From the NCBI RefSeq assembly GCF_003334335.1, contig NZ_QOWQ01000007.1: DNA of 64,000 nt. One strand, 5' to 3'. Origin of the DNA: Escherichia coli (GTDB taxonomy: Bacteria > Pseudomonadota > Gammaproteobacteria > Enterobacterales > Enterobacteriaceae). Every line of letters begins with the position of its first letter. Positions within the stretch are counted from its first letter, which is position 1. The translations under genes and the position numbers were made by a program. Below the pieces are notes generated by a model that was given only the letters and a program-made list of their open reading frames with translations, was not told the origin of the DNA and ran no database searches. Positions 48,004 through 56,789 of the stretch are shown one piece after another.

Positions 48004-48030
48004 TTCTCATATGCGCATCTCTTATGAGCA
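48004..48030 (+). promoter_or_regulatory. Imperfect inverted repeat TtCTCATATG-N7-CTTATGAGCA upstream of the SorC-family regulator gene (candidate operator)
   Basis: Read directly; half-site resembles the TGCTCAT palindromes at 53066-53204. Confidence 0.35.
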
Positions 48031-48079
48031 TAATCGTTATACTCTTCTGATTTATACATGTTTGCTGATGACATGATCA

Positions 48080-49057
48080 ATGGAAAAGAGAATGACGAAA
48101 CAGAAAAAAAACAGCCGCTGGCAGGGTTACGATCCTCGCTACATATACTCGCTCGTGGTCAGACGTTATTTTGCGGATATGAAAACCAAGATTGAGATTG
48201 CAGAGGAGCTTGGCGTTTCCCGCTTTAAAGTTGCCAGATTGATCGATGAGGCGATCGAACAGGATTACGTGAGGTTTATCTTCCCTAAGCAGCAAGCGAT
48301 GGATGAAGAAATCGCCAGTAATTTACGGAAAAAATTTCATCTGGAAGATGCAATTGTTCTTTCAGTTGCTGAATCCTGGACGACGCAAGAAGAACTCAAT
48401 CACAAATTGGGTGAAGTCACCGCTGAATATCTTATGCAATCTCTTCATGAAGGTATGAAAGTGGGGATCGCCTGGGGGCGTGTATTATCAAGCACGGTCA
48501 GTAAGTTGAGCAAGTTGCCTCCTTTAGACGTTGTGCAGTTATCTGGCGTACATCCGGGGATTGAGTTCAGTCAAGGGCCAATAGATCTTATTCATAAGAT
48601 CGCTGCCATTTCGCAGGGAAAAGCGCACCCAATGTACGTGCCGATGTGGGTCGATGACGAAGAGCTTGCTGCCAGACTGGCAGGTGATCCTGCGGTATTA
48701 GATACACAGCAATATTACTCACAGTTGGATGTGGTTATCACCGGGATAGGTGACTGGAAATCAGGTTCTTCAAGCTTGTGTAAAATATTTCCGGATACCT
48801 GGTGCGAAGCGTTGTTTCAACAAGATATCGCTGCGGATGTGTGTATCTCGTTGGTCAACAGGGAAGGGAAGATTCTTCATAGTCCTATTGAACGTCTGGG
48901 ATTTGGCATTTCGACGGATCAACTACAAAAAGCCAAAAAAGTGATTGGTGTCGCTGGAGGAGAAGAAAAATATGAAGGCATCCTTGCTTCGCTGAAATCC
49001 GGACTTTTGAATGTCTTAATTACTGATTTTGATACGGCCATTAAACTTCTGGATTAA
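48080..49057 (+). CDS. SorC/DeoR-type transcriptional regulator (N-terminal HTH, C-terminal sugar-phosphate-binding domain)
   Basis: 325 aa; HTH region IEIAEELGVSRFKVARLIDEA followed by a SorC-like effector domain; start could also be the ATG at 48092. Confidence 0.8.
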   Translation: MEKRMTKQKKNSRWQGYDPRYIYSLVVRRYFADMKTKIEIAEELGVSRFKVARLIDEAIEQDYVRFIFPKQQAMDEEIASNLRKKFHLEDAIVLSVAESWTTQEELNHKLGEVTAEYLMQSLHEGMKVGIAWGRVLSSTVSKLSKLPPLDVVQLSGVHPGIEFSQGPIDLIHKIAAISQGKAHPMYVPMWVDDEELAARLAGDPAVLDTQQYYSQLDVVITGIGDWKSGSSSLCKIFPDTWCEALFQQDIAADVCISLVNREGKILHSPIERLGFGISTDQLQKAKKVIGVAGGEEKYEGILASLKSGLLNVLITDFDTAIKLLD

Positions 49058-51796: not shown

Positions 51797-52144
51797 TTCA
51801 TTTTGCCTGTCGTTAAGTAACTAAAGCCAAGTATGCTGTTGGTAAATATTGGTTGTCAATTGAGATCTGAATCACAAAATTTATAACTAATTGATTTTAA
51901 TGGTATTAAAAACCAATAAAAACAAATAAAAAATAAATTAAGCCAATTGAGACAAATTGGGATTGTACAGTGGCGTTGTAATGAATAATAAAAACTCATT
52001 TATTATCAATCGGATATATGGTTTTTGAACTGTTGTCTTTATTGGGTTTATTTGTACTTTCCACTGTTAGTGTTTGTTTTTGTTTGCATCATCTGTGCTA
52101 TGCTTGGCGTTTTCTAAGATGGGTAATAGATTTCAGGAGGAAGG

Positions 52145-52900
52145 ATGTATCTGGTTGATGAAAGGCGAAAGTTAATACTTGAAGACTTAATGTCGGCAGG
52201 TACGGTCTATGTCAGTGATCTTGCACGAAAGTATGAAGTAACGTATGAGACCATCAGGAAAGATTTGACCCATCTTGAACAAAAAGGGCTGCTGATCAAA
52301 AGCCATGGTGGGGCGACTTTAAAGCAAAGGGCTATAGAGCATCCCTTTCAGGTCAGGGAAAAAGAAAATAACTCTTATAAGAAGGCGATAGCTCGTAAAG
52401 CGCTTGATTTCATTCCGCCTAATAGTTCGATGATTATCGGTACGGGCAGTACCACTTTTGAGCTGGCTAACCTGTTATGTATGAAGTCTGGGTTTAAAAT
52501 CTTCACAGATTCGCTCCCCGTTGCCAGTGTGTTGATTGAATCTGACAACCAGGTTTTTCTCTTTGGCGGCGAACTGCGTAGAAAGAGTTCCTCAGTGTTT
52601 GGGGGGTGGGCGGTATCTATGATCAACGATATACATGTTGATCTCTGTTTTATTGGAACCGACGGCTTTAGTAACATGACTGGTCCATCGACGCCTTCTT
52701 CTTCTGATGCGTTTTTGGATCGTACGATAATTTCGCACTCAGACAAAAAATATATCCTCGGTGATTACACCAAGTTTGAGCGCAGCAGTTTATTTAAGAT
52801 CTGCGACTGGTCGGAGATCACCGCCCTTATAACCAACGATCATGCCGACAAAGAGGGGATTGCCGAAGTCGCAAAATACACGTCAGTAATAACCTGTTAG
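52145..52900 (+). CDS. DeoR-family transcriptional regulator
   Basis: 251 aa; N-terminal HTH (RRKLILEDLMSAGTVYVSDLARKYEVTYETIRKDLTHLEQKGLL) and DeoR C-terminal sugar-phosphate sensor domain. Confidence 0.85.
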   Translation: MYLVDERRKLILEDLMSAGTVYVSDLARKYEVTYETIRKDLTHLEQKGLLIKSHGGATLKQRAIEHPFQVREKENNSYKKAIARKALDFIPPNSSMIIGTGSTTFELANLLCMKSGFKIFTDSLPVASVLIESDNQVFLFGGELRRKSSSVFGGWAVSMINDIHVDLCFIGTDGFSNMTGPSTPSSSDAFLDRTIISHSDKKYILGDYTKFERSSLFKICDWSEITALITNDHADKEGIAEVAKYTSVITC

Positions 52901-53065
52901 AACTCACTACGACACGCCTTCTCCCTTCGAATCAGCTTTGCCAAATGTAATCATTTCCCAATTATCAAGTGAGCATCCATGGCGATGCTTGCTTAGCGCC
53001 CTCTATTGAATACATCCTCTGCCTATTGCCAGTTTCAGTTACTTTTTTGCGAAGAAATCACGATT

Positions 53066-53204
53066 TGCTCATATGAGCATAAATACTGACGCCATTATGT
53101 GCTTTTTTGTGATCTGGATTTAATTTCTCAGATCTCGTTATTTATCCACAGGATCGTTGTGCTATAACTGCTCATATGAATATTGTTCAATGCTCATGTG
53201 AGCA
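53066..53204 (+). promoter_or_regulatory. Promoter/operator region of the second PTS operon with three copies of a TGCTCAT-type palindrome
   Basis: TGCTCATATGAGCA (53066-53079, perfect palindrome), TGCTCATATGAA (53169-53180), TGCTCATGTGAGCA (53191-53204), the last one ~10 nt upstream of the RBS. Confidence 0.5.
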
Positions 53205-53227
53205 TTTTTGGGTGAGGGGGAAAGGAT

Positions 53228-53671
53228 ATGATATCGATCAGTGTTGCCGATGGTGCGGGACTGCAGAATTACGATGCCGTGCTTGAGCATATTTTTAACA
53301 CGCACCGTACAACGAATACGGTGAAAGAGAGCTGGCTCAATGCTATGCGTAAACGCGAAGCGGAATATCCGACAGGAATAGAACTGGAAGGTTATTCTAT
53401 CGCTATACCACACTGTGATAGTGAACATGCGAATCAACCTGCTATTTATATCATCCGTCTGCCAGACGCAATACCTGTGAACAGGGCTGATGAAGATGGA
53501 ATATTGTGGGTCAGACTCGTCGTTAATCTTATTGTTACGGATCCTGCTGACCAGCTTCGATTGTTAAAGTCATTATTTAACCATCTCCAAAATGAAGAAT
53601 TTTACCAAAACTTACTGACACTTCCCGTCGATGATGCAAAAGCACTTTTTGTATCCAAAATAATCCAATAG
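53228..53671 (+). CDS. PTS enzyme IIA component (GatA-like)
   Basis: 147 aa; EYPTGIELEGYSIAIPHCDSEHA parallels the GatA active-site region. Confidence 0.85.
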   Translation: MISISVADGAGLQNYDAVLEHIFNTHRTTNTVKESWLNAMRKREAEYPTGIELEGYSIAIPHCDSEHANQPAIYIIRLPDAIPVNRADEDGILWVRLVVNLIVTDPADQLRLLKSLFNHLQNEEFYQNLLTLPVDDAKALFVSKIIQ

Positions 53672-53689
53672 TAAAAACTGGAGTTTATT

Positions 53690-53983
53690 ATGATTAATAT
53701 TCTTGTTGCTTGTGGTAGCGGTGTCGCTACCTCTACGCTTGCTGCTGATGAAGTGAAGTCAGTATGTGCTGAATATGGTATTACGGCATTTAAAATCAAC
53801 AAATGCAGTATGGCTGAACTTTCTTCTGAGATGGCTCATGCAGATATTGTACTCACAACTAATAACTATAAAGGTGATATTGGGAAACCACATATGAGCG
53901 TTGCAGGTTTTGTAACGGGCATTAATGAAGGAGCATTACGCAAGAAATTAGGAGAGTTATTAACTGAATTAGCAAATAGCTAA
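53690..53983 (+). CDS. PTS enzyme IIB component (GatB-like)
   Basis: 97 aa; MINILVACGSGVATSTLAADEVK with the active-site Cys. Confidence 0.87.
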   Translation: MINILVACGSGVATSTLAADEVKSVCAEYGITAFKINKCSMAELSSEMAHADIVLTTNNYKGDIGKPHMSVAGFVTGINEGALRKKLGELLTELANS

Positions 53984-54003
53984 ACCTGACAGGAATAATA
54001 AAA

Positions 54004-55257
54004 ATGGAAATGTTGAAAAATTTAATGGAAACAATCACCGGAATGGGGGCAACTGCAATACTGCCGCTGGTGATATTTATTTTAGGTCTGGTGTTCAGAA
54101 TGAAACCAGGTGCCGCAATCAAGTCGGGCATCACAGTCGGTATTGGTTTTATTGGTTTAGGTCTGGTTGTTGGTTTATTAAATAGTTCATTACAGCCAGC
54201 TATTGAGTATTACTCAAAAGTAGGTAGTGGTTTTACGGTTGCAGATATTGGTTGGCCAGCAGTCGGTGCTGCTGCATGGGTGGCACCTTTTGCCGCATTA
54301 GTGATACCAGTTGGCATCGTACTTAACCTGATTCTGGTGCGTCTGAAATTAACCAAAACGTTAAATGTTGATATCTGGAACTATATGCATTTTTTAGTTC
54401 CGGGCGCTCTGGCATATTTTGTGTTCGATAGTTTTATCATCGGCTTCTCTGTCGCGGTGGCTTTGAGTATTGCGGCTCTGTTTATTGGCGATTTGATTGC
54501 TCCCAGATGGCAAAAATATTATGGACTCGAGGGAACAACCTGTACCACGATGATTCATATCGGCTGGACTCTACCGTTCGCTTGGGTAGTAAATAAAATC
54601 ATTGATTACATCCCAGGGTTAAATAAGTTAGATGTTGACTTAAACAGTGTGCAAAAACGCCTGGGTGTCTTTGGTGAACCTGCAATTATCGGTGTTATCG
54701 TTGGCGCATTACTCGGAGTTTTAACGAAACAGGCAATTACCACAATTGTTCCCATGGCGATGGGGGCTGCTGGCGTCATGGTGTTGTTACCAAAAGTTGT
54801 TGGTGTGCTGATGGAAGGTCTTAACCCAATAGGGAAAAGTGCCAAAGAAATCATGCAAAAACAGATGGGTAAAGATGCTGAATTAAACATCGGTATGGAT
54901 TGTGCTCTAGCGTTGGGGGATCCGGCGACGGTCACCGTGACAGTAATTACCATTCCTTTAACCATGCTATGTGCTCTGGTATTGCCTGATATTAAGATCT
55001 TCCCAATTGGCGTATTGATGTCAATTATTTATATGACCACCATGACCGTAATGGCGAGCAACGGTAACGTGATTCGTTCGATTATCTCGACCTTGTTATT
55101 CTGCGTTGTAGTGATGTATTTAGGCGGTTATGTCGCACCAGGGGCAACGCAATTTTTAGCTGGAGCCGGTGTAGGCTTGCAAGGACAAGGTACTGATTTT
55201 GTATTAACCGGCCCGTGGGAAATTTTAACCTATTGGTTGAGTACCGTATTACATTGA
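54004..55257 (+). CDS. PTS enzyme IIC permease (GatC/SgcC family)
   Basis: 417 aa; VGIGFIGLGLVVGLL, LNVDIWN, VQKRLGVFGEPAIIGV, MEGLNPIG blocks. Confidence 0.87.
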   Translation: MEMLKNLMETITGMGATAILPLVIFILGLVFRMKPGAAIKSGITVGIGFIGLGLVVGLLNSSLQPAIEYYSKVGSGFTVADIGWPAVGAAAWVAPFAALVIPVGIVLNLILVRLKLTKTLNVDIWNYMHFLVPGALAYFVFDSFIIGFSVAVALSIAALFIGDLIAPRWQKYYGLEGTTCTTMIHIGWTLPFAWVVNKIIDYIPGLNKLDVDLNSVQKRLGVFGEPAIIGVIVGALLGVLTKQAITTIVPMAMGAAGVMVLLPKVVGVLMEGLNPIGKSAKEIMQKQMGKDAELNIGMDCALALGDPATVTVTVITIPLTMLCALVLPDIKIFPIGVLMSIIYMTTMTVMASNGNVIRSIISTLLFCVVVMYLGGYVAPGATQFLAGAGVGLQGQGTDFVLTGPWEILTYWLSTVLH

Positions 55258-55279
55258 TTTAATAATCTGGAGTTTTAAC

Positions 55280-55924
55280 ATGGCAAAAATATTACCTTCT
55301 ATATTTGGCGCGGATATTTTACGCCTGAAAGATGAAATTCATTTTCTGGAAGAGGAACAAACCGAAATATTGCACGTTGATTTAATGGATGGCACATACG
55401 TCAGTAATATAGCCTTTGGCCCAAATCAAATTGCAGCAATGAAAAAAGCCAGTTCGATGATCTTTGACGTGCACATGATGCTGGCAAAACCTGAGCGACA
55501 TATTGATGATGTAATCAATACCGGGGCGGAGATGATTTCTGTACATTATGAATCGACGCCACATGTACATTATATTATTCAAAAAATCAAAAAAGCGGGT
55601 CGCAAAGCAGGTGTAGTGCTTAACCCTGGGACACCTGAATCTGTCATCGAGTATTTATTAGATGATATTGATTATATATTGTTAATGACAATTAACCCCG
55701 GGCAACCAGGCCAGACATTTATTCACAAAAGTCTGGAGAAAATCCGTAATGCCAAAAAAATGATATCTGGTAGAGATATTCAAATTGAAGTGGATGGTGG
55801 CGTTAATCTTGATAATGTAAAACAAGTTAAAGAAGCAGGGGCTGACCTTATTGTTGTTGGTGGTGCCTTATTTAACAAACAGCCTCGTGAAAGTTATCAG
55901 GCATTAAAAATCGCTGTTCAGTGA
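55280..55924 (+). CDS. Ribulose-phosphate 3-epimerase family enzyme (AlsE/SgcE-like ketose-phosphate 3-epimerase)
   Basis: 214 aa; HVDLMDG metal-binding motif and overall Rpe-like layout. Confidence 0.82.
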   Translation: MAKILPSIFGADILRLKDEIHFLEEEQTEILHVDLMDGTYVSNIAFGPNQIAAMKKASSMIFDVHMMLAKPERHIDDVINTGAEMISVHYESTPHVHYIIQKIKKAGRKAGVVLNPGTPESVIEYLLDDIDYILLMTINPGQPGQTFIHKSLEKIRNAKKMISGRDIQIEVDGGVNLDNVKQVKEAGADLIVVGGALFNKQPRESYQALKIAVQ

Positions 55925-56021
55925 TCACAATCTAAAAATTTCACATCCAGTTAAGTGAGGTTTTCGATTTCATATCGGGAGGAAAACCTCAGCTAAAAAA
56001 TGTCTTTAATGGAGAAAAGTA

Positions 56022-56774
56022 ATGAGTAATTTTGCAGGTAAAGTGGTTTTAGTTACCGGAGGTGCTCACGGTATTGGCAAAGGGATAGCTAAACAATTTG
56101 CTGATCGTGGCGCACATACTGTTATTGTTGACTATAACGAAGAGAACGGCAAGGCCACTGCAGCAGAGTTAACTTTTGGTGAAGTTAAATCGTTGTTTAT
56201 TAAAACAGATGTCTCCGATCCACAGGCATTAGTGGATGTACGGGAAAAGGTATTTGCTACCTTTGGTCGCATTGATGTGTTGATATTAAATGCCGGTGTG
56301 GCATTTGCCAATAAAGTTAACAATATTTCTTTTGAGGAATGGAATAAGACTATCGCAATTAACTTATCGGGATTATTTAATACCGTTAAGGCGTTTTATG
56401 ATGATTTCCTGACAAATAAGGGATCTATTGTTTATATCTCATCGGGATCAGCACTTTCGGGGACTGGGGGCGGTGTGAGTTATCCTGCCAGTAAAGCGGG
56501 AGGCGAAGGATTGATTCGTGGTCTGGCAAAAGAGTTAGGACCAAAAGGCGTCAATGTTAATGCGATTGCTCCCCGCTTAATAGACACCGGAGAGATGATG
56601 CGGGTCAACTATCCAACACAAGCCGATTTAGACGCTGTCCTGGAAAAAATACCCGTCCGTCGTCTGGGGACTATCGATGATGTGGCTAACCTGGCAATAT
56701 TTTTGGCAGATAAAGATAACTCTTATATTCAGGGACAAACCATTTTAATGGATGGTGGCCGGACTATTGCTTAA
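56022..56774 (+). CDS. Short-chain dehydrogenase/reductase (SDR); candidate polyol-phosphate or sugar-phosphate dehydrogenase
   Basis: 250 aa; TGGAHGIGKG cofactor motif, catalytic YxxxK (YPASK), NAG motif. Confidence 0.85.
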   Translation: MSNFAGKVVLVTGGAHGIGKGIAKQFADRGAHTVIVDYNEENGKATAAELTFGEVKSLFIKTDVSDPQALVDVREKVFATFGRIDVLILNAGVAFANKVNNISFEEWNKTIAINLSGLFNTVKAFYDDFLTNKGSIVYISSGSALSGTGGGVSYPASKAGGEGLIRGLAKELGPKGVNVNAIAPRLIDTGEMMRVNYPTQADLDAVLEKIPVRRLGTIDDVANLAIFLADKDNSYIQGQTILMDGGRTIA

Positions 56775-56789
56775 AAAGGGAGAGAAAAA

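Follow-up and report, generated by a model that had tools for sequence, protein, structure and literature searches.

Among the SorC-family repressors solved on DNA, DeoR and CggR of Bacillus subtilis act as tetramers on operators of 39-45 bp that are composed of two half-operators, the single halves being poorly bound (PMC11229326). A candidate system of this kind is considered here in a 64,000-nucleotide stretch of Escherichia coli DNA (NCBI RefSeq assembly GCF_003334335.1, contig NZ_QOWQ01000007.1; referred to as the window), which carries an accessory sugar island with two interleaved phosphotransferase system (PTS) operons and the genes of two regulators, one of the SorC family (sorC) and one of the DeoR/GlpR family (deoR). 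Palindromic sites of the form TGCTCA-N2-TGAGCA, designated O0, O1, O3 and O4 from upstream to downstream (Table 1), lie in the gap between deoR and the IIA gene of the second PTS operon (IIA2). Comparison of this gap across lineages suggests that the palindromes are probably the operator set of the SorC-family repressor encoded at 48093-49057, controlling the operon that begins at 53228. O3 and O4 together span 36 bp (53169-53204), with a centre-to-centre spacing of 22 bp and one degenerate arm, which points to the same bipartite architecture as in the solved SorC-family repressors. The island switch is most likely a local SorC/DeoR-subfamily repressor-operator system with lac/deo-like auxiliary operators, that is, an ordinary gene switch, and the mechanism itself is not of a new kind.

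The B. subtilis DeoR protein, associated with dra-nupC-pdp, shares with the island's SorC-type protein an N-terminal helix-turn-helix and a PF04198 sugar-phosphate-binding domain, and its operator of about 39 bp, which comprises two half-operators, binds a dimer-of-dimers tetramer and overlaps the promoter (PMC11229326), compares with the 36 bp of O3 plus O4. The degenerate arm of O3 resembles the asymmetric right half of that operator. The two systems differ in their half-sites (ATTGAA-N6-TTCAAT for B. subtilis DeoR, TGCTCA-N2-TGAGCA in the island), in the position of the operator (-60 to -21 versus a predicted position of about -6 to +30) and in the presence of the extra distal copies O1 and O0 in the island, and the proteins are only remotely similar (E = 8.5e-18 to 8r7y). 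B. subtilis CggR binds cooperatively as a tetramer to a 45-bp tandem bipartite operator of gapA, located downstream of the transcription start at +32 to +77, and is released by a sugar phosphate (PMC11229326, PMC2943609). The predicted downstream position of O4 matches this placement, whereas CggR has a winged-helix domain and recognizes direct repeats, the island protein being of the helix-turn-helix type and each of its proposed half-operators an inverted repeat. The closest solved homologue is Klebsiella pneumoniae SorC from the L-sorbose PTS operon (2w48; E = 2.3e-22, full length). Both proteins are local regulators of an Enterobacterales PTS sugar operon, but the PTS family (mannose-type for K. 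pneumoniae SorC, Gat-type in the island), the genomic locus and the helix-turn-helix (GIYRTTISRLL versus GVSRFKVARLI) differ. The layout of the sites is reminiscent of the E. coli deo (O1/O2/OE), lac (O1/O2/O3) and gal (OE/OI) systems, in which a strong promoter operator is accompanied by an auxiliary operator at least ~100 bp away with a CRP site in between; the proteins of these loop systems belong to families other than that of the island regulator, E. coli DeoR being DeoR/GlpR-type and not SorC-type. Neither the half-site sequence nor a regulon of this SorC subfamily was found in the searchable literature, regulon databases such as RegPrecise not being covered, and a literature search combining SorC, hexuloisomerase, PTS and operator returned nothing on the island. 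The string GCTCATATGAGC was encountered in one unrelated paper, on metagenomic extradiol dioxygenases.

A reading of the window from its letters alone (the sequence-only reading) had described a perfect 14-bp palindrome and two further copies in a 327-bp gap between the DeoR gene and the PTS IIA gene, the last copy standing just upstream of a Shine-Dalgarno sequence, as well as a related inverted repeat ahead of the SorC-type gene. These descriptions hold: the gap runs from 52901 to 53227, the perfect palindrome is O1, the copy placed at 53169-53180 corresponds to the first 12 bases of O3, the last copy is O4, and the repeat at 48004-48030 reads TTCTCATATG-CGCATCT-CTTATGAGCA. The Shine-Dalgarno sequence begins ~9 bp past the end of O4. 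A fourth, degenerate copy, O0, had been overlooked; in other genera its equivalent, T/CGCTCATAAGAGCA, forms a good palindrome.

Table 1. Coordinates in the window of the predicted operator sites, promoter elements and island genes.
Feature	Position	Strand	Sequence	Remarks
O0	52962-52975		TTATCAAGTGAGCA	Degenerate far-upstream fourth copy
O1	53066-53079		TGCTCATATGAGCA	Perfect 14-bp palindrome; proposed auxiliary upstream operator
O3	53169-53182		TGCTCATATGAATA	Left arm perfect, right arm degenerate; proposed upstream half of bipartite operator
O4	53191-53204		TGCTCATGTGAGCA	6-bp arms perfect, centre TG; promoter-proximal, proposed downstream half of bipartite operator
Predicted extended -10	53160-53168	+	TGcTATAAC	TATAAC at 53163-68; IIA2-operon promoter; directly abuts O3
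CRP-like site	53108-53123	+	TGTGA-TCTGGA-TTTAA	Between O1 and O3; left half good, right half (TTTAA) poor
Shine-Dalgarno sequence	~53214-53220		GAGGGGG	IIA start codon at 53228
Candidate autoregulatory site	48004-48030		TTCTCATATGCGCA, ATCTCTTATGAGCA	Two overlapping weak 14-mers; upstream of -10-like TATACT (48038-48043)
Candidate DeoR-type repeat	51838-51853	minus	ACCAAT-N4-ACCAAy	Inside spacer of rpiB promoter TTGACA (51859-54)-18-CATACT (51835-30)
Further candidate DeoR-type repeats	51912-51927 and 51942-51957; possibly 52072-52087		ACCAAT-N4-ACCAAy	
SorC-family sugar-binding transcriptional regulator	48093-49057	+		WP_000166118.1 (RefSeq start); longest open reading frame starts at 48080
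RpiB/LacAB-type isomerase and Gat-family IIC, IIB, IIA operon	Between sorC and deoR	minus		
DeoR/GlpR-family regulator	52145-52900	+		
Target operon	53228-57350	+		Gat-family PTS IIA, IIB, IIC; ribulose-phosphate 3-epimerase-like; SDR; 6-phospho-3-hexuloisomerase-like (SIS)

The sites were compared across seven Enterobacterales loci, from E. coli, Entomohabitans, Citrobacter, Enterobacter wuhouensis, Klebsiella oxytoca, Enterobacter sp. EA-1 and Providencia, which were found by a DeoR protein scan with one genome per species; the whole island was recovered in the six species other than E. coli. In the aligned deoR-IIA2 gap, where the mean column identity is 49%, the GCTCA/TGAGC arms of O1, O3 and O4 are without any variation. 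The O0 equivalent, GCTCATAAGAGCA, is well conserved outside E. coli. The same holds within the species, as the arms are unchanged among five E. coli gap alleles that are 82-94% identical, with variation in the central 2 bp and the flanks. The O3 form with a weak right arm and the spacing of 20-22 bp to O4 recur in 11 other loci (Citrobacter, E. wuhouensis, K. oxytoca, EA-1, Rouxiella, a Vibrio cholerae-type contig, Glaesserella and contigs L019, L021, L022 and L023), with O4 equivalents in Rouxiella, the Vibrio-type contig, Glaesserella, L019 and L021; no other feature is conserved as widely among the lineages as this pair spacing. The centres of O1 and O3 are 103 bp apart in the E. coli window, a distance kept in six Enterobacterales, and 94 bp and 211 bp apart in the Vibrio-type contig and L019, respectively; these distances correspond to ~9.8, 9.0 and 20.1 helical turns, all near whole numbers, as would be predicted for looping. 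Taken together, these comparisons indicate that the palindromes are well supported as real, evolutionarily conserved operator sites. The gap as a whole is variable in E. coli: it is just 80-90% identical in 118 of 233 genomes, and an 11-12-bp indel immediately upstream of O1 separates the window from other alleles (L024-L027), which suggests distinct promoter alleles or recombination. The 2.2-kb stretch including the flanking genes is mostly 95-99% identical, as opposed to the far more polymorphic gap.

A frequency beyond chance was seen for the paired arrangement. With up to two mismatches allowed, shuffled sequences gave 1.77 +/- 1.58 strand-matches to the palindrome pattern and the window 9, a number that none of 100 shuffles reached, whereas the bare half-site TGCTCAT was without enrichment in the window (15 observed, 10.5 expected), so that only the paired arrangement carries the signal. 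A position weight matrix built exclusively from sites outside E. coli, with scores in bits, placed O4 (53191; 27.6), O1 (53066; 26.9), O3 (53169; 16.1) and the two sorC-promoter 14-mers (48004, 13.1; 48017, 12.7) as the top five of the 64-kb window. For sites of at least 26 bits, the model expectation is 7e-5 per 64 kb and 0.005 per 4.5 Mb; for those of at least 16 bits it is 5.5 per 4.5 Mb, and for those of ~13 bits roughly 26 per 4.5 Mb. O1 and O4 are thus far beyond chance. O3, with 0.08 such sites expected per window, is supported as a predicted site through its fixed position, and the scores at 48004 and 48017, for which ~0.4-0.5 are expected per window, are not significant by themselves. 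O0 reaches 9.5 bits in E. coli versus 18-24 in Citrobacter, E. wuhouensis, K. oxytoca, EA-1 and Entomohabitans. All matches of at least 16 bits in the 318 kb made up of the window and the loci fall in the gap upstream of the target operon, and no further strong copy was detected outside the operator gaps in either the 64-kb window or these 318 kb.

These figures bear on the suggestion that the palindromes are bound by another factor, for instance a global regulator, that they function in the RNA as a hairpin, attenuator or terminator, or that they arose by chance or from base composition, for example through an NdeI-site bias. The central CATATG is indeed an NdeI site, the arms of O3 and O4 could pair in the RNA of the 5' untranslated region, and the link between protein and site is itself a prediction made from sequence. 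It is, however, the central CATATG that varies (TG, CA and AA variants) and the arms that do not; each 14-mer would as a hairpin have a sterically impossible 2-nt loop; no terminator is predicted in 52900-53230 and there is no Rfam match; strong sites are expected, under the model, only 0.005 times per genome; and the SorC homologue is the sole gene shared by all loci with the motif. To our knowledge, the motif is unlike the consensus of CRP, Cra, LacI-family, GntR-family or other E. coli global regulators. Explanations of this type are therefore regarded as scarcely credible, and an intrinsic terminator, an RNA element or a REP-like repeat was rejected, there being no terminator, no Rfam match and no dispersed strong copies in 318 kb.

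The identity of the binding protein was addressed by asking which gene accompanies the palindromes. The regulator encoded directly upstream, the DeoR/GlpR-family protein (52145-52900; WP_000281586.1), might bind them and repress the downstream PTS operon: its gene ends 62 bp ahead of O0 and 166 bp ahead of O1, regulators are often encoded directly upstream of their targets, and deoR and the palindromes adjoin in all seven Enterobacterales loci. In other lineages, however, the palindromes occur without a nearby deoR. In Rouxiella (L013; SorC 60% identical), with the gene order LysR / IIA-IIB-IIC-rpe-alcohol dehydrogenase-sorC-SIS and no deoR, a perfect TGCTCATATGAGCA lies 45 bp ahead of the IIA start with a half-site 22 bp further upstream, and Glaesserella (L015; 62%) and contig L021 (64%) carry sorC and the operon, no deoR, and pairs 22 bp apart at the IIA start. 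Related sites are found in the divergent gap of L017 (61%; kinase, epimerase, SIS and MFS transporter genes). More distant relatives, again without deoR, include L019 (45%), where an ABC transporter replaces the PTS and CGCTCATATGAGCG accompanies a pair 21 bp apart, L023 (40%; 65% G+C), with a pair 20-21 bp apart beside a SIS gene, and L022 (32%; 69% G+C, actinobacterial-type), with a pair 20-21 bp apart beside sorC in a 60-bp intergenic gap. Besides Rouxiella and Glaesserella, the palindromes are thus seen without an adjacent deoR in several metagenome contigs, in an alphaproteobacterial-type contig and in the actinobacterial-type one, usually as a pair 20-22 bp apart. The gene order of the V. 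cholerae-type contig (L020; SorC 74%) agrees with this: sorC precedes the IIA2 operon and three palindromes in the O1 / O3-O4 layout stand between the two, deoR being 5 kb away, divergent from the rpiB operon and facing the other operon.

Conversely, the two loci with deoR but without the second operon, those of Thermophilibacter and Proteus, have no palindrome; in the Proteus contig (L005) none was found downstream of deoR. The motif lies beside sorC or the linked operon in 12 of 12 non-redundant SorC-homologue loci. Epimerase and SIS genes accompany the SorC homologue in Rouxiella, Glaesserella, L017, L019, L020, L021 and L023, and of all genes only the SorC homologue recurs in every locus with the palindrome, Enterobacterales and the actinobacterial-type contig alike. 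The helix-turn-helix of this regulator, GVSRFKVARLI, with the putative recognition helix SRFKVAR, is kept in every SorC homologue that has a palindrome-bearing locus. The palindromes therefore co-occur with SorC independently of DeoR, which argues that the operator travels with the SorC gene and its target operon, and binding by the DeoR/GlpR-type protein appears very unlikely. The sequence-only reading had proposed an operator for the island's regulators in general; the operator part is borne out by the invariant arms in seven species and in the E. coli alleles, and the binder is narrowed to the SorC-type protein alone. The deoR module, consisting of deoR and the divergent rpiB-IIC-IIB-IIA operon, would be a separate unit that in Enterobacterales is situated between sorC and its target promoter; deoR adjoins the palindromes because of how the two modules are arranged there, and its position between sorC and the target promoter would result from this module rearrangement. 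The Rosenbergiella locus (L010) holds a deoR fragment only and was uninformative, and Bacteroidetes and Anaerolineae matches (L011, L012; ~30% identity) were too distant to be used.

The DeoR-type regulator appears to have a candidate operator of its own. The divergent rpiB/deoR gap is highly conserved and contains the direct repeats ACCAAT-N4-ACCAAy (Table 1), which are kept in all island-bearing species and are present in every deoR/rpiB divergent gap examined. In Thermophilibacter (Coriobacteriia, L008), which has a DeoR 62% identical to that of the island and only the divergent rpiB-IIC-IIB-(SIS)-IIA operon, three perfect ACCAAT-N4-ACCAAT repeats (L008 6789, 6843 and 6906) occupy the divergent gap, and neither a palindrome nor SorC nor a second operon was found in its 14.7 kb. 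Perfect copies are also present in Providencia (L006 6690) and in the Vibrio-type contig (L020 8321), whose deoR/rpiB gap has TTGGT/ACCAA-type repeats only. With 0-1 mismatches, the ACCAAT repeats are nearly confined to deoR/rpiB gaps, the single exception being L002 13141. This distinct and conserved repeat further speaks against the DeoR/GlpR-type protein as the binder of the palindromes. There is no palindrome in the rpiB/deoR gap and no ACCAAT repeat in the deoR-IIA gap; with no motif exchanged between the two gaps, the shared operator and cross-regulation that the sequence-only reading had envisaged for the two regulators are not indicated. A CRP-like site shared by seven species, TGAGA-TCTGAA-TCACA (51861-51876), stands directly beside the -35 of the predicted rpiB-operon promoter. 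As a CRP-like site also precedes the second operon, both island operons may be under catabolite control.

The position of the palindromes relative to the predicted promoter points to repression as their likely effect, since the O3-O4 pair abuts the conserved predicted -10. Within this promoter, GTG.TATAA is invariant in seven species, and -10-like hexamers are found as TATACT abutting the O3 equivalent in L020 and as TATGAT 4 bp ahead of that in Rouxiella; a generic sigma-70 scan of the gap did not list the inferred IIA2 promoter, and the -10 call rests on conservation. Transcription would start at ~53175, inside O3; numbered from this start, O3 would extend from about -6 to +8 and O4 from about +16 to +30. 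Upstream of the start, TGTGA (53108-12) in the left half of the CRP-like site is invariant in seven species, and in E. coli, Citrobacter, Rouxiella and the Vibrio-type contig it precedes O4 by a fixed 81-83 bp, the centre of the site falling at about -59.5 to -61.5 from the inferred start. Class I CRP-dependent promoters carry TGTGA-N6-TCACA centred near -61.5. By comparison with this consensus, a class I CRP site with a weak second half is plausible.

The following mechanism is proposed. A SorC tetramer, as a dimer of dimers, would occupy the bipartite operator O3+O4 (53169-53204), covering the inferred start to about +30 and thereby blocking RNA polymerase. O1, together with O0 in other genera, would serve as an auxiliary operator ~10 helical turns upstream, which could act by increasing the concentration of repressor nearby or by looping the DNA around the CRP-like site. 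Release would be brought about by a phosphorylated intermediate of the pathway, after which cAMP-CRP would activate transcription. Known effectors of the SorC family include deoxyribose 5-phosphate (dR5P), fructose 1,6-bisphosphate (FBP) and phosphorylated autoinducer-2 (phospho-AI-2). By analogy, the effector is presumably a phosphorylated intermediate, and both tetrameric DNA binding and release by a phosphorylated sugar may be proposed for this SorC-type protein. The stretch from deoR to the IIA2 operon (52900-53230) contains no predicted intrinsic terminator. Transcription from the deoR promoter could thus read into the SorC-controlled operon unless it is blocked by bound repressor.

A different assignment of roles would have the SorC-type protein bind these sites mainly as an activator or dual regulator, with O1 and O0 as activating sites. 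O1 lies ~100 bp upstream of the inferred start, at a distance compatible with activation, and the predicted promoter has a poor -35. The O3-O4 pair is, however, the best conserved and most widespread arrangement, and in every lineage it sits at and beyond the predicted -10, shortly ahead of the start codon; Rouxiella, Glaesserella, L021 and L022 have an O3-O4-type pair only, with no O1. The characterized relatives DeoR of B. subtilis, CggR and LsrR are repressors (PMC11229326). A primarily activating role is accordingly viewed as unlikely.

The sorC promoter may contain a further target of the SorC-type repressor. In its spacer, a CT..TGAGC core and a TATACTCTT.TGA block are invariant in seven species, and upstream of sorC in the Vibrio-type contig there is a CTCATATGAG core, with TTCTCATTTGATCA and GACTCATATGAGCT 24 bp apart. 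Negative autoregulation of sorC via 48004-48030 is plausible on these grounds, with about even prospects. The autoregulation raised by the sequence-only reading is thereby supported in part, through the invariant TGAGC core and the Vibrio-type sites, and weakened by the low scores in E. coli and the lack of a site in Glaesserella.

Several observations weigh against control of the island by a SorC-family repressor as described above. The E. coli sorC-promoter 14-mers have centres 13 bp apart versus 20-24 bp elsewhere, in addition to being low-scoring, and the Glaesserella sorC promoter is without a comparable site. With 104-122 bp between them, O0 and O1 are not consistently in helical phase. 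The loci found included neither one that has the operon and palindromes and lacks a SorC homologue nor one that has a SorC homologue and lacks the palindrome, so that the association rests on ~12 positive and 2 negative loci. The genome-wide site numbers are model expectations, the scans having covered the window and the loci (318 kb), and the promoter and CRP site are predicted ones, as is the direction of control. As to the direction, K. pneumoniae SorC is reportedly both a positive and a negative regulator, which also favours an activating role.

In a broader and tentative proposal, which we hold somewhat less probable than its negation, the pair of TGCTCA-N2-TGAGCA sites at 20-22 bp might constitute a clade-wide operator code of the SRFKVAR SorC subfamily, guarding epimerase/SIS pathways, and in Enterobacterales would have expanded to a set of four phased operators that loop out the CRP site and roadblock read-through from deoR. 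Such a code would be shared by Enterobacterales, Vibrio and Pasteurellaceae with alphaproteobacterial-type and 69%-GC actinobacterial-type genomes. For the widespread SorC subfamily, the conserved motif could seed regulon prediction and help to identify the substrate. The assignment proposed here provides a regulon for an accessory sugar island that ~4% of complete E. coli genomes carry and that also occurs in several other Enterobacterales, and says which regulator controls which of the two interleaved PTS operons and where binding is predicted. It also calls for caution in automated regulon inference, as the regulator gene beside an operator is not necessarily that of its binder.

The stretch 51900-54100 is present in 234 of 5426 complete E. 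coli genomes, each time as a single chromosomal copy, and the accessory island of ~10 kb is located between ldtA and the tRNA-Asn gene upstream of nac. NCBIfam assigns only generic functions to the operon enzymes (ribulose-phosphate 3-epimerase, SDR and 6-phospho-3-hexuloisomerase). The SorC-type regulator gives full-length but sub-threshold NCBIfam matches to Bacillus-type DeoR and LsrR, PF04198 is present in 67 of its 67 homologues, and its closest matches among solved structures, over residues 20-324, are to K. pneumoniae SorC (2w48), B. subtilis DeoR (8r7y) and LsrR (4l5i). The K. pneumoniae psicose locus, which comprises a permease, a ribokinase, an allulose-6-P epimerase, an aldolase and a DeoR regulator (Martin et al. 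2018; PMC6020474), was rejected as the identity of the island owing to its different gene content.

Gene content varies between the island-bearing genomes. An extra SIS gene ends the first PTS operon in Citrobacter (L003 3363-3890), K. oxytoca (L007 3362-3889) and Enterobacter EA-1 (L009 3383-3879), and at the same position in Thermophilibacter (L008 3848-4363), whereas E. coli, Entomohabitans, E. wuhouensis and Providencia lack it. In Providencia (L006 7754-8256), IIA2 is gone and a ~500-bp gap with retained operators lies ahead of IIB2. The EA-1 locus (L009) gave fragmented tblastn matches in most genes, which suggests many frameshifts, arising from pseudogenization or assembly errors. In strain ECZP248 (L001), which is 100% identical to the window from the regulator to IIB, IIC2 is frameshifted and split by IS1A (L001 15244-15941), unlike IIC2 of the window (54004-55257), an intact open reading frame of 417 amino acids. 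Within IIB2, an operator-like half-palindrome, ACCACATATGAGCG, is found at 53887-53900 (11.6 bits), and its position is kept in Entomohabitans (L002 8780), Providencia (L006 8451; GCCTCATATGAGCG, 15.3 bits) and EA-1 (L009 8796); it could reflect coding constraint or an intragenic auxiliary operator.

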